From Escherichia phage vB_EcoP-101114UKE3, in sequence record NC_070982.1: a stretch of DNA of 64,000 nt. One strand, given 5' to 3'. The notes beneath the pieces are model-generated. The model worked only from the letters and a program-made list of their open reading frames with translations, was not told where the DNA came from and made no database searches. The position numbers and the translations under genes are program-made. This document shows positions 7,544 through 63,520 of this stretch, one piece after another (the stretch's first letter is position 1; each line of letters begins with the position of its first letter).

Positions 7544-7549
7544 CAAATA

Positions 7550-7575
7550 GGGGCTTCGGCCCCTTTTATTGTTTT
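7550..7575 (+). terminator. GC hairpin with TTCG loop plus T-run
   Basis: ggggc-ttcg-gcccc then ttttattgttttt. Confidence 0.5.
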
Positions 7576-14148: not shown

Positions 14149-14159
14149 ATAATGTATAT
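14149..14159 (+). promoter_or_regulatory. phage-specific promoter-like motif TAATGTATATA
   Basis: motif 36 nt upstream of ATG 14195; near-identical copies upstream of three minus-strand genes. Confidence 0.5.
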
Positions 14160-22423: not shown

Positions 22424-22446
22424 GAAAAAAGCCACCCGAAGGTGGC
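22424..22446 (-). terminator. intrinsic terminator (TTCG hairpin plus U-run)
   Basis: minus-strand gccacc-ttcg-ggtggc followed by tttttt. Confidence 0.5.
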
Positions 22447-23268: not shown

Positions 23269-23279
23269 TATATACATTA
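23269..23279 (-). promoter_or_regulatory. promoter-like motif TAATGTATATA (minus)
   Basis: about 60 nt upstream of SSB start. Confidence 0.45.
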
Positions 23280-48487: not shown

Positions 48488-49705
48488 CTATTTATTAAAG
48501 AATAATTTTTCCATAATGGTTTCCCACTCTTCTGAGGGGAGGGTTGAGAACCCGTTTCCGTGAAGCCTGTTTGTCATGCAACTAATAATATTGTACATGT
48601 TGTAGCTTCGGGTGGATTCTGTTCCATTGTTCCAGTTATAACCGAAAACAATTTTATCGAAGGAGGTTTTATCCGTAGTTACTTCTCGGATGAACTCAAC
48701 CAAGAGCGATTTCTCTGTGATGACCGCACGTTCACCATCTGGCAGATTACAATACTGAGGAAGAAGAATTGGTAAGAACATCGAATTGTTCACTCGACAA
48801 TCACGAACATCTTCACTGCGATAGATTAGGCTTGAGAAGTCTTCATCACGCAGGTGTCCTTCACCTTCAGTGTATTCACACTGTCGCCATTTGGTCTGAC
48901 GAGGTTCAATCATTGTACTACCAACGCCTACTGTATACAGAGACGCTTGGAAGATACACGAGTCGTAATCATTCCCTGTTAAAGCAACTTGCTCATTGCC
49001 GAACACATCCACTGAAGAGTTAATCAGTCGGCTGAATGCAAGAGAGGCTAGTGGAGACCAACCTTTCTTATACATCTTGTTCAGCATTTCATACACAGCA
49101 GATTTTTCATCATCTGTATAGAATGTACGATTCAGCATCAGATAGAACAGAGCGCGATCAGCAGGACAACCATCAGTACAAACACCCATGAATCCTACTT
49201 CATGCCATACCAGACATGAGTCAGAATCTTTATCCATGAATGCTTCAAAGGCTTCCATTACAGCCCTGTCAGTAACATCAGGACGGTTGTTTTCTTCTGC
49301 CCATGTTTCTACATGAGAAGGAGGACGAGGGTCTCCATTCTCCACCCCTTCGCGGAAATATTGAGTGGTAATAGGCTTTTTATCACCATAACGTTTTACA
49401 CCATAAGCGGGAAGGTGTGTACCAGAGTTCCAGATGTACTTAATTTCGGACATAGGCATCATGTTTTCGAGAACGTTCTCTTCAGCAGTGCCTTGACGAA
49501 CCATCATATTTTCACTCCACACCTTAATGCGGATATTCCAGCCGTAGTTGCTGTCATACGTGTTATAATAATCAGGATCACCATCTTCATCTTCATCATA
49601 ATCACCACCCTGATAGTAACCTGCTTTCAGGAAACCATAACAAGGAGGCCAGACGGTTACAACATCATCTGATTCTTTCCAGCTTTGAAGTGTTACAGGG
49701 AACAT
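48488..49705 (-). CDS. hypothetical protein (cassette member)
   Basis: 405-aa ORF, acidic N-terminus. Confidence 0.45.
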   Translation of the reverse strand: MFPVTLQSWKESDDVVTVWPPCYGFLKAGYYQGGDYDEDEDGDPDYYNTYDSNYGWNIRIKVWSENMMVRQGTAEENVLENMMPMSEIKYIWNSGTHLPAYGVKRYGDKKPITTQYFREGVENGDPRPPSHVETWAEENNRPDVTDRAVMEAFEAFMDKDSDSCLVWHEVGFMGVCTDGCPADRALFYLMLNRTFYTDDEKSAVYEMLNKMYKKGWSPLASLAFSRLINSSVDVFGNEQVALTGNDYDSCIFQASLYTVGVGSTMIEPRQTKWRQCEYTEGEGHLRDEDFSSLIYRSEDVRDCRVNNSMFLPILLPQYCNLPDGERAVITEKSLLVEFIREVTTDKTSFDKIVFGYNWNNGTESTRSYNMYNIISCMTNRLHGNGFSTLPSEEWETIMEKLFFNK

Positions 49706-49716
49706 CTTTTACCTCT

Positions 49717-50079
49717 TTACTCTGCTACCAAAAGGCTCAGAGATTTGCGAATGTAGTCAATACTACGGAAGTTTCGATAGTTCTCTTGGAAGCGCATTTT
49801 TTCAAACTCTGCTTCCTGAAGCTCTACCTCTGCTGCTTTATATCCTGATAAAGCTAAACTTACCACATCCTGAGGTAAGGTATTACGACGGCGAATAAGA
49901 TATTTATTCGCTTTTAGTTTACCTTGTGCACGAGCCATTTTGGCCTTTGCCGCCTTGATACCATGAGAAATCCAAAGCAGTTGCTGTTTCAGATCTTCCT
50001 CATCCATACCACCTAAATCATTTGCTACTTTATGCAGCGTAGACAGGTTCACATGGCCTTTAATGGGGCGTAGGTTCAT
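49717..50079 (-). CDS. hypothetical protein
   Basis: 120-aa basic helical ORF. Confidence 0.4.
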   Translation of the reverse strand: MNLRPIKGHVNLSTLHKVANDLGGMDEEDLKQQLLWISHGIKAAKAKMARAQGKLKANKYLIRRRNTLPQDVVSLALSGYKAAEVELQEAEFEKMRFQENYRNFRSIDYIRKSLSLLVAE

Positions 50080-50243
50080 AACTTCTCCTGTTTGTCACAT
50101 TGATTGGTTAGCCAGTTGTAAGACCCACTGTTGTTCTTGCTTAACTCGCAAGATGCAAAAGAGTACATCCTGACAAACCCCACAGTGGCTAAGCAAATAA
50201 AGATTGCTGCCAATAAGAATTTAGCTTTCAACTTATTATCCAT
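50076..50243 (-). CDS. small membrane/secreted protein (55 aa), not in ORF track
   Basis: MDNKLKAKFLLAAIFICLATVGFV...; GAGG SD; stop overlaps next ATG. Confidence 0.35.
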   Translation of the reverse strand: MDNKLKAKFLLAAIFICLATVGFVRMYSFASCELSKNNSGSYNWLTNQCDKQEKL

Positions 50244-50446
50244 ACAACCTCTTCTTTGAGCTTAAAAAAGGACTCTCCTAAGAGAGCCAAGCTTTAAGGC
50301 CAATTAAATAGATATCACCCAATATCTGTGGATAACCTGCTCTTAAAATATTCTATCCGACGGATGTTCGAGGATTATTCCTCTCCCTAGCATCGGCCCC
50401 ATACGGGAAAGATTAAATTAAGTTTAGGTTAGTTGAGCCAGAATAG

Positions 50447-50489
50447 CTCACATAGCCCTCTGATACTCACAAGGGCTATAGATGTTACT
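50447..50489 (-). repeat. conserved hairpin element, copy A
   Basis: CACATAGCCCTCTGATACTCACAAGGGCTATAG directly after stop codon; 8-bp stem, 12-nt loop; near-identical copy at 56084-56130. Confidence 0.5.
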
Positions 50490-50733
50490 CTGTGGCTCCG
50501 TCGAATCGGAGGATTGCTGCTGGAACAGGGTATGCTTCCAGATCTTCATCCAGTCGGTATAGATGCCCTGTACTTAAATTTACAGCTGTTACTGGCTTAG
50601 AGTGGCCTCCAGCCTGTATGGAAGGAACTCTGATAAAGAACTCTTCTGGATATTCAACAGAGTGGAACACACTTCCTGAATAAAGATCTTTTATTTTAGA
50701 AGTTTGTTTAGGAGTTTTATCAGCAATTTTCAT
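50485..50733 (-). CDS. small protein, five-member paralog family
   Basis: L-x-x-G-[DS]-x-F ... V-x-L-S-x-G pattern shared with 51854, 52124, 54939, 56130 ORFs. Confidence 0.45.
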   Translation of the reverse strand: MKIADKTPKQTSKIKDLYSGSVFHSVEYPEEFFIRVPSIQAGGHSKPVTAVNLSTGHLYRLDEDLEAYPVPAAILRFDGATE

Positions 50734-50966
50734 TACAGACCTTTCTTAGCACGATCTTTGGCAGTTTTGCCAGTGCGGATACGATGGGAAACATTAACCA
50801 GCTCGCCACCTTCGACGATGGTTACGCTTTTGTTTTTCGCAATATCAAACACAGTTTTCTCTGTGCCGCCCAGACGAATCTGTTTAGGCTCACTGTGGGT
50901 CTGAGTTGATTTAGACTGGAACTGGAACGGCTGACGGATGGCATCAATTGCGCTAACTTTAGACAT
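50733..50966 (-). CDS. small hypothetical protein
   Basis: 77-aa ORF. Confidence 0.4.
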   Translation of the reverse strand: MSKVSAIDAIRQPFQFQSKSTQTHSEPKQIRLGGTEKTVFDIAKNKSVTIVEGGELVNVSHRIRTGKTAKDRAKKGL

Positions 50967-50994
50967 GTTTTTATTACCTTACATTAAAGAGAGA

Positions 50995-51408
50995 TTAAAC
51001 AACGAATTGGAACGCTTCGTATCCAAACTTGTATAAGAAATCGTGTTTGAACTTTACTACACGACCACGATCGCGGAAAGCTTTCAGGCGACTGCTGAAC
51101 CCAACCATTGGCTCAGGGTCAATAGGGCTACGAATCTTCATAGCTACAGAGTGCAGCTTGAAGCGTTTACCAGTGCTACAGGCCATCATCACATACTCCA
51201 TACGAGTAGTCCAGATGTTGAGCACCATGCTTGTTTTCTCCGCTGACCAACCAGTCTTGCGGGCGATTTCTTTATGGACATTAAGCTCCAAAGGAAGAGG
51301 GAATTGCTTGTTGAATGAAGCCGGATATAGCTTGACCAGAAGGTCAATGTTTTCTTTATACGTTAAGTAAGCCAATTTCTTGCTTACGTTAGGGAATTTC
51401 CCAGACAT
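50995..51408 (-). CDS. ProQ/FinO-domain-like RNA-binding protein
   Basis: KENIDLLVKLYPASF..PLPLELNVHKEIARKTGWSAEKTSMVLNIWTTRMEYV...GKRFKLHS aligns by pattern to E. coli ProQ N-terminal domain. Confidence 0.45.
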   Translation of the reverse strand: MSGKFPNVSKKLAYLTYKENIDLLVKLYPASFNKQFPLPLELNVHKEIARKTGWSAEKTSMVLNIWTTRMEYVMMACSTGKRFKLHSVAMKIRSPIDPEPMVGFSSRLKAFRDRGRVVKFKHDFLYKFGYEAFQFVV

Positions 51409-51606
51409 TTTTGAAGCTCCAAAACAGCGCCGAAAAGAGAGGCGTCATAGTAGCTAAAAGGAGGAGAGAAGAGGGCTTATTTACTTGCCTTTTTCTGTCC
51501 GTTAATGTACCAGATAACTGAACCGTCAGGCTGTCGTTGACCGAAGCCTTTCAAGTTAACCATTTCTTCTTCAGAGTAGGCACGTTTTCTCACTGATTTT
51601 CTCCTG

Positions 51607-51864
51607 TCAGTAGAAGGTGTGTGTAGAGTCGTCGTTCATAGATAACCAAACGAAGAAGACAATCACACAGAAAGCAATAATACCGAGAGTTGCAAGGATT
51701 ATAGTGTTAGCTAATGTGATATCTAACACGCTTTGCAGATATATAAAGAACTGTACGACACCACATACCATCAGCACAACCCCAACGACAATGAGGAGCC
51801 AATATGTGCAGAGAAGGACTGCATCTAATAGTGATACATACTTTGGATGATCTTTATGTCTCAC
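51607..51864 (-). CDS. small membrane protein
   Basis: two or three TM segments. Confidence 0.4.
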   Translation of the reverse strand: MRHKDHPKYVSLLDAVLLCTYWLLIVVGVVLMVCGVVQFFIYLQSVLDITLANTIILATLGIIAFCVIVFFVWLSMNDDSTHTFY

Positions 51865-52120
51865 TGATCTTTTCCACTAAATCCAGAGTTGCTGATTCAA
51901 ATACAACACCAACTACCATATTAGGTGCCATATTACGAACGTATCCGCTCTGCATAGACACGGCCCGAGAGTATTCAGAACCGTTAGAACTTTTGTTTAC
52001 CTTCATGTAAAGGGTTTGCTCTTTATCTTCTTTCAGAGTAAAGAAAGAGCCGGGAAGAAGCCTCTGAACAGTCAGAGGGATATCTGCAACATGAGTCTTA
52101 TTGATAGTAAGAACTGTCAT
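51854..52120 (-). CDS. small protein, five-member paralog family
   Basis: LLPGSFFTLKEDKEQTLYMKV. Confidence 0.45.
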   Translation of the reverse strand: MTVLTINKTHVADIPLTVQRLLPGSFFTLKEDKEQTLYMKVNKSSNGSEYSRAVSMQSGYVRNMAPNMVVGVVFESATLDLVEKISET

Positions 52121-52123
52121 TGC

Positions 52124-52378
52124 TTATTCCTTAATAGTTGCTTCAGCTTTAATAGGAATAACAGCAACATCTTTACGAGGTGCTGTCGCTCGACCTGTGT
52201 TAAGGCAGGCTACAAGTCTATGCTCGTCCGCACCCTTGATGCAGAGTCGAGTTGAGAACTCAGTAGACAGCAAGATGTACAAATCATCATCTTCACTGTT
52301 AGGGTACATGAAGCAATCCCCAAGTCGTAAAGCACTGAGAGGTATTGCACTCTTACCTGCTGGTTTATTAACTTTCAT
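52124..52378 (-). CDS. small protein, five-member paralog family
   Basis: LRLGDCFMYPNSEDDDLYILLS. Confidence 0.45.
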   Translation of the reverse strand: MKVNKPAGKSAIPLSALRLGDCFMYPNSEDDDLYILLSTEFSTRLCIKGADEHRLVACLNTGRATAPRKDVAVIPIKAEATIKE

Positions 52379-52654
52379 TTTACCACCTTTAGTTATGGAC
52401 CAATTTATGAGAGAACTCTCGGAAGAATGCTTTCATAAATAGGGGGAGGGGACGAATCCTCCCATATCCTATTAATTAATATTGCATGTAAGATCTAACA
52501 ATTCGATGCTGTAGTGGATAGCGTAAAACGCTTACCGGCATTAAACCCAGCCCATGAGGGGCTTATGTGAATAAAATGCTCAACATTGAGCGGTTAGTTG
52601 ATAGGAGATCTGAAGTCCTATCTCAAAGGACTCTCGTAAGAATCCTTCACGATA

Positions 52655-52909
52655 TCACTTAGTAAGAAAGATTATCAACTTATCCGCTACCCAGCCTATT
52701 AACATAAGGACAGGTAAGAAGAAGATAAAGATCAGCATAAAAGGCCAGAAGAATATCACCGTCCAAATAGAAAGTATATCAGGCTGACCACTCCATGAGC
52801 AGTGGAAGAAGTTGTAGAGTGTATTGGTTTTGAAGCACCATTTAACTACAATGGCTGCTAACCACCAACCAATAACATAAATCAGGAGGACATACGCTGC
52901 TGTAACCAT
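52655..52909 (-). CDS. small membrane protein
   Basis: multiple TM segments. Confidence 0.4.
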   Translation of the reverse strand: MVTAAYVLLIYVIGWWLAAIVVKWCFKTNTLYNFFHCSWSGQPDILSIWTVIFFWPFMLIFIFFLPVLMLIGWVADKLIIFLTK

Positions 52910-53136
52910 TCACCGTTCCATTGATAGTTGCGAGTTACCACGTTTCCGTGGATAAGGAAGTGCTGGCGGCGAAGGATATCTTTAACGTTGTAGTAGGCAG
53001 CGTTACCGAGATGACCTTCTTTAATAAGCCAACGAAGATTACGGATATCAACCAACAGCATTTTTACTTGCTGTTGGCATGAAGTTTGAGCTGCTGTTTC
53101 AAGTAGAGCTTTCGTATCAGAATAATGACCGGACAT
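52882..53136 (-). CDS. hypothetical protein
   Basis: 84-aa ORF. Confidence 0.35.
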   Translation of the reverse strand: MSGHYSDTKALLETAAQTSCQQQVKMLLVDIRNLRWLIKEGHLGNAAYYNVKDILRRQHFLIHGNVVTRNYQWNGEWLQQRMSS

Positions 53137-53740: not shown

Positions 53741-53816
53741 TGGTGCGCCCTACAGGACTCGAACCTGTAACCAATAGCTTAGAAGGCTACTGCTCTATCC
53801 GTTGAGCTAAGAGCGC
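53741..53816 (-). tRNA. tRNA-Arg(UCU): tRNA-Arg (anticodon UCU), CCA encoded
   Basis: hand-folded cloverleaf: 7-bp acceptor, D arm GCTC/GAGC, anticodon loop CTTCTAA, T arm ACAGG-TTCGAGT-CCTGT, discriminator A plus CCA. Confidence 0.85.
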
Positions 53817-57462: not shown

Positions 57463-57489
57463 TAAAAAAGCCCCATCCGAAGACGGGGC
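57463..57489 (-). terminator. intrinsic terminator (TTCG hairpin plus U6)
   Basis: minus-strand gccccguc-uucg-gauggggc (G-U only on this strand) then uuuuuu. Confidence 0.55.
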
Positions 57490-60823: not shown

Positions 60824-60852
60824 ATTATGAATCATGCTGTTTTAGCTGTCAA
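60824..60852 (-). promoter_or_regulatory. sigma70-type early promoter P1
   Basis: minus-strand TTGACA, 17-nt spacer, CATAAT. Confidence 0.5.
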
Positions 60853-60990
60853 CCGCTTTTTTAATCTTTTTCGTCGTTCCCTTTATTGGGAGGATATATC
60901 AATCAGCTATATTTGATTGAAGATTAAGCGGTAAGGCTTAACTCACGATTCATATTTTTAAAGAGCGGTGTTTCTTACTGCTTGGTGAAC

Positions 60991-61018
60991 ATTCTATCAG
61001 AGTATTTCACCTTGTCAA
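60991..61018 (-). promoter_or_regulatory. sigma70-type early promoter P2
   Basis: minus-strand TTGACA, 16-nt spacer, extended -10 TGATAGAAT. Confidence 0.5.
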
Positions 61019-61087
61019 CTCTTTTTATCATCTTCTTTTATTCTATTCCCTTATCTCGCTTGAATCTATGCGAAAGGGCAAGATGAT

Positions 61088-61104
61088 AAATTGTTAAAGA
61101 GCGG
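61088..61104. repeat. 17-bp repeat AAATTGTTAAAGAGCGG (copy 2)
   Basis: exact repeat of 60721-60737. Confidence 0.5.
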
Positions 61105-61149
61105 GGCACTAAGTGCCGGATGTTTCAAGTCATCGCTGACCGTGTGAAC

Positions 61150-61177
61150 ATCTTATCATAATGATTCGATGTGTCAA
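61150..61177 (-). promoter_or_regulatory. sigma70-type early promoter P3
   Basis: minus-strand TTGACA, 16-nt spacer, extended -10 TGATAAGAT. Confidence 0.45.
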
Positions 61178-61239
61178 CAACTATTTTTCGATTAATGCAT
61201 CTTGATAAACTAGCGACCGTTAAGGCCGCTAACCTTACC

Positions 61240-61440
61240 TTAGTTCATACGTTTAAAGGTTAAATCTTTATCTGTACTTACCAGCGATAACACCGCAATA
61301 GCTTTGCCTTTATCGGCATCGGCTACCATCTCTTTTGCCTGCTGTAATGTACTACCGACTATTCTCATAATCATGTTAGTAACGTTAATGCTAGTGCAAG
61401 TGATTTGCGTGTCTTTGCTTGAGAAGGTGTAGATGTTCAT
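61240..61440 (-). CDS. small hypothetical protein
   Basis: start MNIYTF with GAGGA SD. Confidence 0.35.
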   Translation of the reverse strand: MNIYTFSSKDTQITCTSINVTNMIMRIVGSTLQQAKEMVADADKGKAIAVLSLVSTDKDLTFKRMN

Positions 61441-61799
61441 TGATAAATCCTCGTTATGGCATGGTTGAGAGTTTATCAAGATACACTAATCGAATTATTA
61501 AAGAGCAAGGCTAAACATCTAGCCTATCAGGAGGTAACTTACTGCATCACGTCCTGATAAGATTCAATATACACTATCCTAAAACCGTTGCAAGTCTTTT
61601 TCTAAAATAATTTCACTTTCTTTTAGGCATAAAGGAACGAACACACGAATAACATCAAGGGAGGAAGAAAACAAGCTCTATAATCGAAATCTAGGCACAT
61701 AGGAAGCATCCTAGCGAGCTAAACAGGGGCAAGATGTGCAATCACCTTAGAAATGAAAAAAGCGCCTCAAAAGGGCGCTTAGAGAGTCTTACGGATTGG

Positions 61800-62126
61800 T
61801 TACGGATTGGTGCAAGTGCCGTTACCGGATGATATTTCGTTCATCGACTCATCGAACAACGTCATGCTAGACCGCATCATGTGATCTATAGTGATTTGCT
61901 TTCCGGTAATTTCGTTAACAAGCATTGCAGACTTACTATCAACTATCTTGCTGTCGTAGTCGTTCAGGTCAATCAATACTACCTTGCTGGACTTCTTGCC
62001 AGTGTCGTAGTTTTCCATAAGATAGGTGCATTGCAGACCATCTAAACTAGCCTCGTTGAATACGGCAGCATAGGACACGGAAGAAATAGCGAACAAAGCA
62101 GAACATACAGCTAATTTAATTTTCAT
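61800..62126 (-). CDS. small secreted protein
   Basis: signal peptide MKIKLAVCSALFAISSVSYAA. Confidence 0.45.
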   Translation of the reverse strand: MKIKLAVCSALFAISSVSYAAVFNEASLDGLQCTYLMENYDTGKKSSKVVLIDLNDYDSKIVDSKSAMLVNEITGKQITIDHMMRSSMTLFDESMNEISSGNGTCTNP

Positions 62127-62218
62127 GATCCAACCCTTAAGCGGAACGTGCAACAAAGAAAAACAAGTCATAGATAAATGCTATGATACAGAGAACTAAC
62201 AGACAATGCAAAAAATAC

Positions 62219-62491
62219 TTATGTAACATTACTCACCACTTTATCTAGATGATCATCGAACGTTTCACAAATGGATTGCACTTCGTCAATATCTAGTAAC
62301 AGACCGTGACGGGCAAAGAATTGAGCTAACTCAAGATAATCCGCACCAATAAGCATGACACCATTGAAAGGGGCGATCTTAACATCTTGAGATGTTACCA
62401 ATAATAAATTACCAATATCAGCAATAGCGTCATAATTCAGCGTAACGCCTACACCGTAATTGTGTGTTTCAATAATGGCAATAGTTTCCAT
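62219..62491 (-). CDS. hypothetical acidic protein
   Basis: 90-aa ORF coupled to upstream gene. Confidence 0.4.
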   Translation of the reverse strand: METIAIIETHNYGVGVTLNYDAIADIGNLLLVTSQDVKIAPFNGVMLIGADYLELAQFFARHGLLLDIDEVQSICETFDDHLDKVVSNVT

Positions 62492-62493
62492 CG

Positions 62494-62742
62494 TTAATTA
62501 TCCTCGACGGTTAGTAGTTCTTCCAGTGACAAACCGGATTTAACCAGCAAATCACGATATTCGTTAGCATCCATCGGATCGAGGCCGGATAATCGGGCAA
62601 CGGTCATGCGTGCATGTGCTGAAGACAAGGAAGCTAAAGCACGGATAGGGATCAATACAAGCCCATATTTACCGCTGATAACTAAATCACCGTGCTGGAT
62701 GCACATATGAGCATTTACTACGATTGCAAATGATTCATTCAC
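62494..62742 (-). CDS. hypothetical protein
   Basis: 82-aa ORF, start overlaps upstream stop. Confidence 0.4.
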   Translation of the reverse strand: MNESFAIVVNAHMCIQHGDLVISGKYGLVLIPIRALASLSSAHARMTVARLSGLDPMDANEYRDLLVKSGLSLEELLTVEDN

Positions 62743-63239
62743 TGGATAGCCTCACAATTAGCAAAGTTAATAAAGGTTGTATAAACTGCTACACCGTCAT
62801 GATATGCAGTCGTAGCGAGTATGGTTTCACTTACATCACCATAGCTAACGAGATTAGTTACAAACTGTAATTTCTCTTTCTCAACCTTCTGATACAGAGA
62901 ATACGTCACCATATCGTGATCACTATCAGCACGTTTCAATTTAATGACTGACTGAGTGCCGGATTTCTCGCCCAATGGGGTAAGAGTGACACGCACATTA
63001 GCGGTAGTGACTTCATTGAAGTGAACACGCCAGAATGCATCATTGCCATCACTTCCAACGTCACGGCAAGCCATATCAGGAGCGTTCTTAAATGTGCTAA
63101 CAAAAGATTGCAGACCAGTAGGAGCGGATAACCTCTTATCATCTTTAGCCTGCACATTGGTAGCGATAGCACTAACACCGATAGCTGCAACCAGTGCATA
63201 AGACGCTAGATTGATAGCCTGCATTGCTTTGATAGCCAT
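62739..63239 (-). CDS. secreted/periplasmic protein
   Basis: start MAIKAMQ with AGGAG SD; signal peptide ending ATNVQA. Confidence 0.45.
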   Translation of the reverse strand: MAIKAMQAINLASYALVAAIGVSAIATNVQAKDDKRLSAPTGLQSFVSTFKNAPDMACRDVGSDGNDAFWRVHFNEVTTANVRVTLTPLGEKSGTQSVIKLKRADSDHDMVTYSLYQKVEKEKLQFVTNLVSYGDVSETILATTAYHDGVAVYTTFINFANCEAIQ

Positions 63240-63520
63240 TATTACTACTCCTGATAGATGAAAGATTGTTTGTCGTGTGTAGTTACTTAGGCTGATCAAC
63301 CTTCACTACTCACTATCACCGCTAACTACTTTACATCACTGCTTCATTAACGATAATTCAAACTACGATTGCAACTATATATTAAAGGAAAAACATGTCA
63401 ACCACTTATTTTCAAACTCTTTCATAACTCACTGAATATAAAAGGAATTTAATTTACTAAACTTTCTTACTCAGAGATACAGCTTACCAAATAGATGTTA
63501 TTTTATAACACTTACAGAAC

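Follow-up and report, generated by a model that had tools for sequence, protein, structure and literature searches.

A divergent FinO/ProQ-domain protein, predicted to bind RNA 3' ends, in the early region of some phiEco32-like phages

The stretch of DNA analyzed here (the window) comprises 64,000 nucleotides from Escherichia phage vB_EcoP-101114UKE3, a phiEco32-like E. coli podophage (Gordonclarkvirinae, Kuravirus). From approximately 24 kb to the end of the window at 64 kb, every gene lies on the minus strand. Among them is a gene for a 137-residue protein with a FinO/ProQ domain, which is preceded by a Shine-Dalgarno sequence and set within a short cassette between two genes with homologues in phiEco32 (Table 1). 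Positions 49000-53000 of the window are identical (100%) to Escherichia phage vB_EcoP-101114BS3 (MZ234015.1), where the same protein, 101114BS3_075, is labelled 'hypothetical protein'. The product is basic, with a pI of 10.0 and 24 lysine and arginine residues against 11 aspartates and glutamates. It is assigned to the PHROGs family phrog_18901, whose function label is unknown.

Table 1. Features of the FinO-like locus and of related elements; positions refer to the window unless another locus is named
Feature	Position	Strand	Remarks
FinO/ProQ-domain CDS	50995..51408	-	137 aa, ATG start; window = Escherichia phage vB_EcoP-101114UKE3, NC_070982.1
Shine-Dalgarno GGAG	51417..51420	-	8 nt 5' of the ATG of the FinO-like gene, read from sequence
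FinO-domain core (predicted)	51079..51381	-	residues ~10-110; AF2 model and alignment
Extra C-terminal helix (predicted)	51025..51069	-	residues 114-128, F-x3-F-x3-FG-x3-F pattern; AF2 model
Presence/absence cassette (FinO-like gene and short flanks)	50967..51435	-	469 bp
phi32_93 homologue	50733-50966		one cassette flank
phi32_94 homologue	51477-51593		other cassette flank
First intrinsic terminator 3' of the FinO-like gene, GGCUCUCUUAGGAGAGUCC + U6	50262..50288	-	annotated in SU7
Structured RNA, copy A	about 50482-50262	-	~220 nt, non-coding; ends in the terminator 50288-50262
Structured RNA, paralogue	56131-56002	-	
Structured RNA, copies elsewhere	L004 31943-32072, 37911-38036; L019 6264-6402; L010 2941-3077; L020 3018-3141		
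UUCG-loop intrinsic terminator GCCCCGUC-UUCG-GAUGGGGC + U6	57489-57470	-	-16.2 kcal/mol
UUCG-loop intrinsic terminator AGCCACC-UUCG-GGUGGCU + U6	22447-22430	-	-12.7 kcal/mol, z -4.2
Sigma70-type promoter cluster	60824..63401	-	strong; TTGACA -35 boxes, near-consensus
Four promoters	63401-63374, 61177-61150, 61018-60991, 60852-60824	-	
Intrinsic terminator between the first promoter and the other three	61780-61760	-	

The coding status of the reading frame was assessed with six orthologues, from the window phage, SU7, EK010, ECBP2, Bas88 and NC-B. Their genes differ at 5-6% of nucleotides and their products at 4-7 of the 137 residues, with pairwise dN/dS values of 0.04-0.19. Residues 3-92 are unchanged across all six with the sole exception of V44I, and most substitutions fall in the C-terminal third of the protein. 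The low dN/dS and the small number of residue changes indicate, at the level of sequence, that the FinO-like reading frame is a genuine gene and evolves under purifying selection. Its operon neighbours all belong to PHROG families of unknown function and have no informative Pfam match, and so offer no functional clue. Three small proteins encoded nearby on the minus strand, of 82, 88 and 84 residues (50485-50733, 51854-52120 and 52124-52378), look like paralogues of one another and cross-match four PHROG families that have no assigned function (phrog_6570, 7431, 7832 and 12612). A tRNA-Arg gene (anticodon TCT; 53741-53816, minus strand) occupies the same relative position as in phiEco32 and SU7. 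A possible attenuator 5' of the FinO-like gene was discarded: the hairpin at 51415-51450 is no better than shuffled sequences (z +0.5), and another at 52463-52444 is unremarkable too (z -1.0).

The gene is an accessory one. The genome of phiEco32 lacks it and carries 59 bp in place of positions 50967-51427 of the window. Among 93 related phages with similar DNA around the locus, the gene is present in 20 and missing from 73, and in about 70 of these records the two flanks are joined without it. Searches for the gene at the DNA level in 5,426 complete E. coli genomes, and for its subfamily by tblastn in 72,556 plasmids, returned no match. A small, conserved gene that is polymorphic for presence among near-identical E. 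coli phages makes a convenient natural knockout system.

The promoter cluster listed in Table 1 is, by analogy, the presumed source of early transcription towards the FinO-like gene. Its order of one promoter, a terminator and three further promoters reproduces the early-promoter layout published for phiEco32 and SU10. The gene falls within a block that matches the early class of SU10 (CDS 69-125, themselves assigned by analogy with phiEco32), and precedes the middle gene gp79 in the order of transcription. Synteny with phiEco32 and SU10, taken from secondary descriptions, therefore supports placing the gene in the early class, and with it the label of 'early region' that a preliminary description of this DNA had used. 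No exact match to the middle promoter recognized with gp36 (tAATGTAtA) lies close to the gene. Matches with one mismatch occur in the window at chance level (23 against 19.6 expected), and for this reason one such site inside the gene (51357-51365) was disregarded. Exact matches to the promoter element of the phiEco32 gp36 sigma factor (TAATGTATA) are found elsewhere in the window, at 14150 (plus), 23271 (minus), 23342 (plus) and 29828 (minus), and the pair at 23271 and 23342 is divergent.

The preliminary description had identified the product as a ProQ/FinO protein from a motif string, and had named profile search and structure prediction as ways of checking the call. The string is essentially there (...YKENIDLLVKLYPASFNKQFPLPLELNVHKEI...LNIWTTRMEYVMMACSTGKRFKL), with one spacing wrong by one residue. 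In a direct search, the Pfam ProQ profile (PF04352) matches residues 18-87 with an E-value of 1.1e-5 and 25.8 bits, which is 1.2 bits short of the gathering cut-off of 27 bits and marginal if taken alone. A word-indexed homologue search found one near-identical protein only (98% identity), which carries a precomputed PF04352 assignment. An exhaustive phmmer search over 1.84 billion cluster representatives (E<1e-3) recovered 42 relatives, and all but one of these match PF04352 individually, the best at an E-value of 1e-26. With phmmer, the 137-residue protein has no direct match among PDB sequences, so that its homology to FinO domains, to whose solved members it is approximately 16-24% identical, is visible through profiles alone. 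The profile of the relatives' alignment finds the N-terminal domain of E. coli ProQ (5nb9) as its best match, over approximately 107 positions (E 3.9e-17), together with RocC (2.8e-13), FinO (3.3e-11), Lpp1663 (1.3e-10) and NMB1681 (2e-7). The core motif P29/F32/L40 corresponds to P22/F25/L34 of ProQ.

Structure prediction agrees with the profile searches. An AlphaFold2 (AF2) model built from the relatives' alignment reaches a pLDDT of 92.8 and a pTM of 0.86, and predicts helices at residues 10-27, 44-52, 56-68, 70-79 and 98-110 with a beta-hairpin at 81-83/93-95; since the input alignment consists of FinO-family sequences, the predicted fold does not count as evidence separate from the homology call. 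A model from the single sequence was unusable (pLDDT 42.8). In a Foldseek search of the AF2 model against the PDB, the first 26 matches are all FinO-domain structures (RocC, NMB1681, FinO and Lpp1663), with probabilities of 0.99-1.00 and target-normalised TM scores mostly of 0.56-0.71. The best of them is RocC bound to the terminator of RocR (7rgu/7rgt; E ~1e-3, probability 1.0, TM 0.59-0.71). Match 27 has an E-value of 1.5, and winged-helix structures surface only at E>1. The profile matches, the 41 relatives and the predicted fold together make the assignment to the FinO domain secure, as that of a divergent member, and the earlier identification is borne out: the outcome that the preliminary description had named as speaking against it, a missing profile match with a predicted fold unlike FinO, did not arise. 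Short, sub-threshold matches to Pfam DUF7343 (winged-helix-like, 19 residues) and to the Pfam and NCBIfam ribosomal L31 models were set aside as noise, and PADLOC gave no match for the protein.

It is barely credible, on this evidence, that the resemblance to ProQ/FinO arose by chance or that the reading frame is not a gene. The shortfall of the direct Pfam score and the lack of a direct phmmer match in the PDB are what such a reading could draw on. A transitive profile E-value of 1e-17, the PF04352 matches of 41 of the 42 relatives, a fold search that returns FinO domains only and a dN/dS below 0.2 all stand against it, and refute resemblance by chance.

FinO/ProQ proteins form a major family of bacterial RNA chaperones beside Hfq, and studies of them have dealt with chromosomal and plasmid-borne members. 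Compared with ProQ, a chromosomal global regulator, the protein described here is phage-encoded and accessory, and has neither a linker nor the C-terminal Tudor-like domain: it consists of a single domain with one extra helix. In this it resembles the minimal ProQ proteins NMB1681 of N. meningitidis and Lpp1663 of L. pneumophila, which have one FinO domain with short extensions and are chromosomal. Plasmid FinO and FopA share with it the property of being encoded by a mobile element, although the phage subfamily has no plasmid match. Proteins of the FinO/FopA/PcnR type are plasmid-borne and accompanied by a cognate antisense RNA, and no antisense partner RNA was identified near the FinO-like gene. 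RocC, which serves one dedicated sRNA partner, provides in its complex with RocR a structural template for the holding of a hairpin and its 3' tail.

The nearest counterparts are other phage proteins. Distant homologues of 28-41% identity occur in Salmonella phage 7-11, in pSal-SNUABM-01 and in the Erwinia phiEa21-4 group, as well as in Aeromonas LAh phages, Shewanella phage KASIA (p031), and Hafnia and Cronobacter phages. All sources of the subfamily that could be traced are phages or phage-like contigs, with hosts among the Proteobacteria. The closest metagenomic relative adjoins a gene for PRPP synthetase, an arrangement also seen in 7-11-like phages. Several of the phage homologues, which are direct homologues of the protein described here, already bear the label 'ProQ/FinO family' or 'RNA chaperone', and the SU7 orthologue (A0A8F3C9D8, 96% identity) appears in UniProt/BFVD as 'ProQ/FinO domain-containing protein', so that the domain call as such had been made before. 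The identification of the preliminary description is right, and less novel than it implied. Proteins of this kind are described as found 'rarely in phage genomes' in the KASIA paper (PMC8541194), and phage FinO-like proteins otherwise receive passing mentions only; our literature search found no experimental work, on RNA binding or otherwise, on any FinO-domain protein of a virulent phage. Some of the annotated homologues carry an additional C-terminal domain: those of phage 7-11 (L003 3983-4687) and P0015, P0016, P0019 and P0031, of 227-234 residues, follow the FinO domain with a conserved domain of approximately 100 residues bearing the motif GNHPF...TS.V..I...NSVY, to which no function is assigned. 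The fold search also identified a second FinO-fold protein in phage 7-11 (G0X575).

We compared the RNA-binding surface across the phage subfamily (41 aligned relatives) with the sequences of ProQ and RocC, taking the contact positions from PMC9674577. In the RocC-RocR co-crystal, a pocket formed by a tyrosine and an arginine (Y87/R97) clamps the 3'-terminal nucleotide of the terminator (PMC9674577). This pocket is kept: Y72 and R82 of the phage protein correspond to the RocC pair and to Y70/R80 of ProQ, and are invariant in all 41 relatives. The serine at the helix N-cap is also kept, S55 aligning with S70 of RocC and S53 of ProQ directly before the model helix 56-68, and the position is occupied by serine or threonine in 30 of the 41 relatives. 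T67 aligns with T82 of RocC.

Other parts of the surface are altered. The N-cap arginine, R75 in RocC and R58 in ProQ, is replaced by S60; among the relatives, the position holds arginine in six and serine in 13. The arginine makes a key phosphate contact in RocC, is approximately 80% conserved across the wider family, and its replacement in the R75D mutant costs RocC more than 100-fold in affinity (PMC9674577). A glycine of the beta-turn, G52 in RocC and G37 in ProQ, is described as 'nearly completely conserved' in FinO domains (PMC9674577); it is glycine in 37 of the 41 relatives, and asparagine (N43) in the window protein and its close orthologues. A56 takes the place of K71 of RocC and K54 of ProQ, and three more basic residues of ProQ, R32, K35 and R62, correspond to L38, E41 and N64. 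K58, which aligns with K73 of RocC, is the sole basic residue left among the aligned N-cap contact positions. R69, which adjoins the pocket and aligns with R84 of RocC and S67 of ProQ, is invariant in the subfamily. The helix at residues 114-128 is common to part of the phage subfamily and has no aligned counterpart in the FinO domains of ProQ and RocC that were compared. The loss of the N-cap arginine, together with the invariant R69 beside the pocket, suggests that the protein differs somewhat from ProQ, RocC and FinO in its mode of binding or in its specificity. The modified hairpin-contacting face is a hint of altered specificity as judged from aligned residues, and not evidence against RNA binding; the basic charge of the protein is consistent with the predicted binding of a hairpin and its 3' tail. 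A serine in place of the N-cap arginine could reveal by what means specificity is adjusted in FinO domains.

The same alterations could be read as signs of a fold that has been repurposed or is decaying, which no longer binds RNA 3' ends and either contacts protein or DNA or persists as a dispensable passenger. Besides the missing N-cap arginine and beta-turn glycine, such a reading would accommodate the extra C-terminal helix, the lack of the gene in most relatives and the weak sub-threshold match to the winged-helix-like DUF7343 over 19 residues. We regard it as quite improbable: purifying selection is strong and focused on the FinO core, Y72, R82 and R69 are invariant in 41 divergent relatives, the protein is very basic, and the fold search places winged-helix structures at E>1 only.

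The predicted binding of RNA 3' ends directs attention to the terminators of the phage. Terminator hairpins followed by a 3' tail are known ligands of FinO domains (PMC9674577; PMC9977716), and the preliminary description had pointed to a genome rich in such hairpins. Two that it named, at 57463-57489 and 22424-22446, are indeed canonical intrinsic terminators of the minus strand. UUCG loops occur at 57489, 25758, 22447 and 7549. In three of four scanned segments, terminator-like sites number roughly twice the shuffle expectation (26 versus 14.3+/-3.6, 28 versus 13.9+/-4.1 and 5 versus 2.7+/-1.6), and the fourth contains 16 versus 12.9+/-4.3. The richness in hairpins is therefore confirmed over shuffled sequence in three segments, but the density is what one would expect where the host RNA polymerase transcribes the phage, and is nothing special. 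Similar terminators are present in many relatives without the FinO-like gene. The terminators have no specific link to the protein, and are reasonable candidate ligands and no more. The first of them downstream of the gene is likely to form the 3' end of its transcripts. One further hairpin, the palindromic AGGGGC-UUCG-GCCCCU at 7549-7564, obtains a terminator score on each strand and is maybe a bidirectional terminator.

We consider it probable that the gene encodes a small, basic, single-domain FinO/ProQ protein, expressed early in some phiEco32-like phages, that binds RNA 3' ends as predicted and has phage transcripts as its likeliest ligands. By analogy with characterized FinO domains, the protein would bind structured RNAs through a hairpin and the single-stranded 3' tail that follows it. 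Binding might shield these RNAs from 3' exonucleases and polyadenylation, or aid RNA-RNA pairing. Early transcripts of the phage, or small RNAs ending in intrinsic terminators, would be the likeliest ligands. Since the gene is accessory, its role would be modulatory and not essential. That the protein binds the phage's own terminators, or that it competes with host ProQ or Hfq, as the preliminary description had suggested, is pure inference: the terminators are ordinary, 73 of the 93 related phages lack the gene, and the protein differs from the canonical RNA-binding surface at two conserved positions. For a lytic phage, the question posed by a protein that binds RNA 3' ends is whether it protects transcripts, assists a regulatory RNA or interferes with host ProQ.

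A role directed at the host is the less likely alternative, though one with several observations in its favour. The protein would compete with ProQ, or mimic it, on host sRNAs and mRNA 3' ends, for instance on the antisense RNAs that depend on ProQ in type I toxin-antitoxin systems; the outcome would be reprogrammed stability of host RNAs, or a blunting of RNA-based abortive infection after gp79 has shut off host transcription. The gene sits among the early genes of host takeover, and its accessory, patchy distribution is that of many host-interaction genes. The 3'-end pocket is conserved and common to ProQ, whose ligands include many RNAs of mobile elements and toxin-antitoxin systems (PMC9977716), and which guards 3' ends against poly(A) polymerase (PMC12086684). 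Identity to solved FinO domains is, however, only about 16-24%, and the basic surface formed in ProQ by K54, R58 and R62 is replaced by A56, S60 and N64, so that an overlap with the ligands of ProQ is not assured. The PADLOC search also gave this reading no match. The phage's own transcripts remain the preferred ligands.

Among these transcripts, one structured RNA, of which each Kuravirus genome has two copies, emerged as the candidate ligand that suggests itself most naturally for the FinO-like protein. Copy A of this non-coding element lies approximately 500 nt downstream of the FinO-like gene. It begins directly after the stop codon of the 82-residue reading frame that follows the gene's downstream neighbour, and is situated just upstream of a gene for a 55-residue membrane protein. 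Its sequence is 86% identical to that of phiEco32, compared with 66-70% for the flanking coding DNA, and the RNA is found at a coverage of at least 80% in 97 of 101 related records. One of the phages that carry it is a member of another family and has little DNA similarity apart from this element.

An alignment of 14 copies, with slid pairing partners as controls, supports a conserved secondary structure. Four helices are paired in 98.2% of cells, versus 31-49% with slid partners, compensatory double changes are found at eight pairs, and the covariation score is 0.39 versus at most 0.07 in the controls. A fifth helix can be recognized by eye (GAGC/GCUC, GAGU/ACUC, GAGG/CCUC and GAGUUA/UAACUC). 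The helices enclose an internal loop that does not vary, GCUAGGG(N)GAG...CUC(R)AACAUCCG. G-U pairs in the helices can form on the sense strand only, which places the structure at the RNA level, in early transcripts.

Searched with a covariance model of the element, the window and phiEco32 contain exactly two copies each, and the loci examined of 7-11 and pSal-SNUABM-01 one copy each. In the latter, the RNA lies ahead of a gene for a putative endolysin. A distant copy (61 bits, E 7e-12) is located in a 48.7-kb contig that had been assigned to a Flavobacterium MAG; all of its helices have covaried and its internal loop is identical. The genes around the distant copy in L020 have no Pfam match. 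Rfam contains no family that matches the element, yielding only weak matches driven by the terminator. Its role could be that of an sRNA, of a cis-acting leader or attenuator, or of a site to which a protein binds. The element is undescribed, and this side observation may be more novel than the FinO-like gene itself.

The structured RNA co-occurs with FinO-like genes in 7-11-like Salmonella phages. It is also present in phages without such a gene, and thus does not depend on it. A divergent phage FinO chaperone that acts with a dedicated RNA partner in host takeover, the structured RNA being the likeliest candidate for that partner, is a speculative and very doubtful extension of the preferred reading. 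If it were true, phages without the FinO-like gene might use host ProQ for the structured RNA, and the system would be a tractable one in which to study how phage and host compete for an RNA chaperone. One more occurrence of the element was encountered in an 8-kb contig (CALKAR010000070.1) from a MAG labelled 'uncultured Peptococcaceae', where it scores 135 bits, like the phage copies, and resembles the A copy of the KBNP1711 type; by its appearance, the contig is a piece of a Kuravirus genome that was wrongly placed in a Firmicutes MAG.
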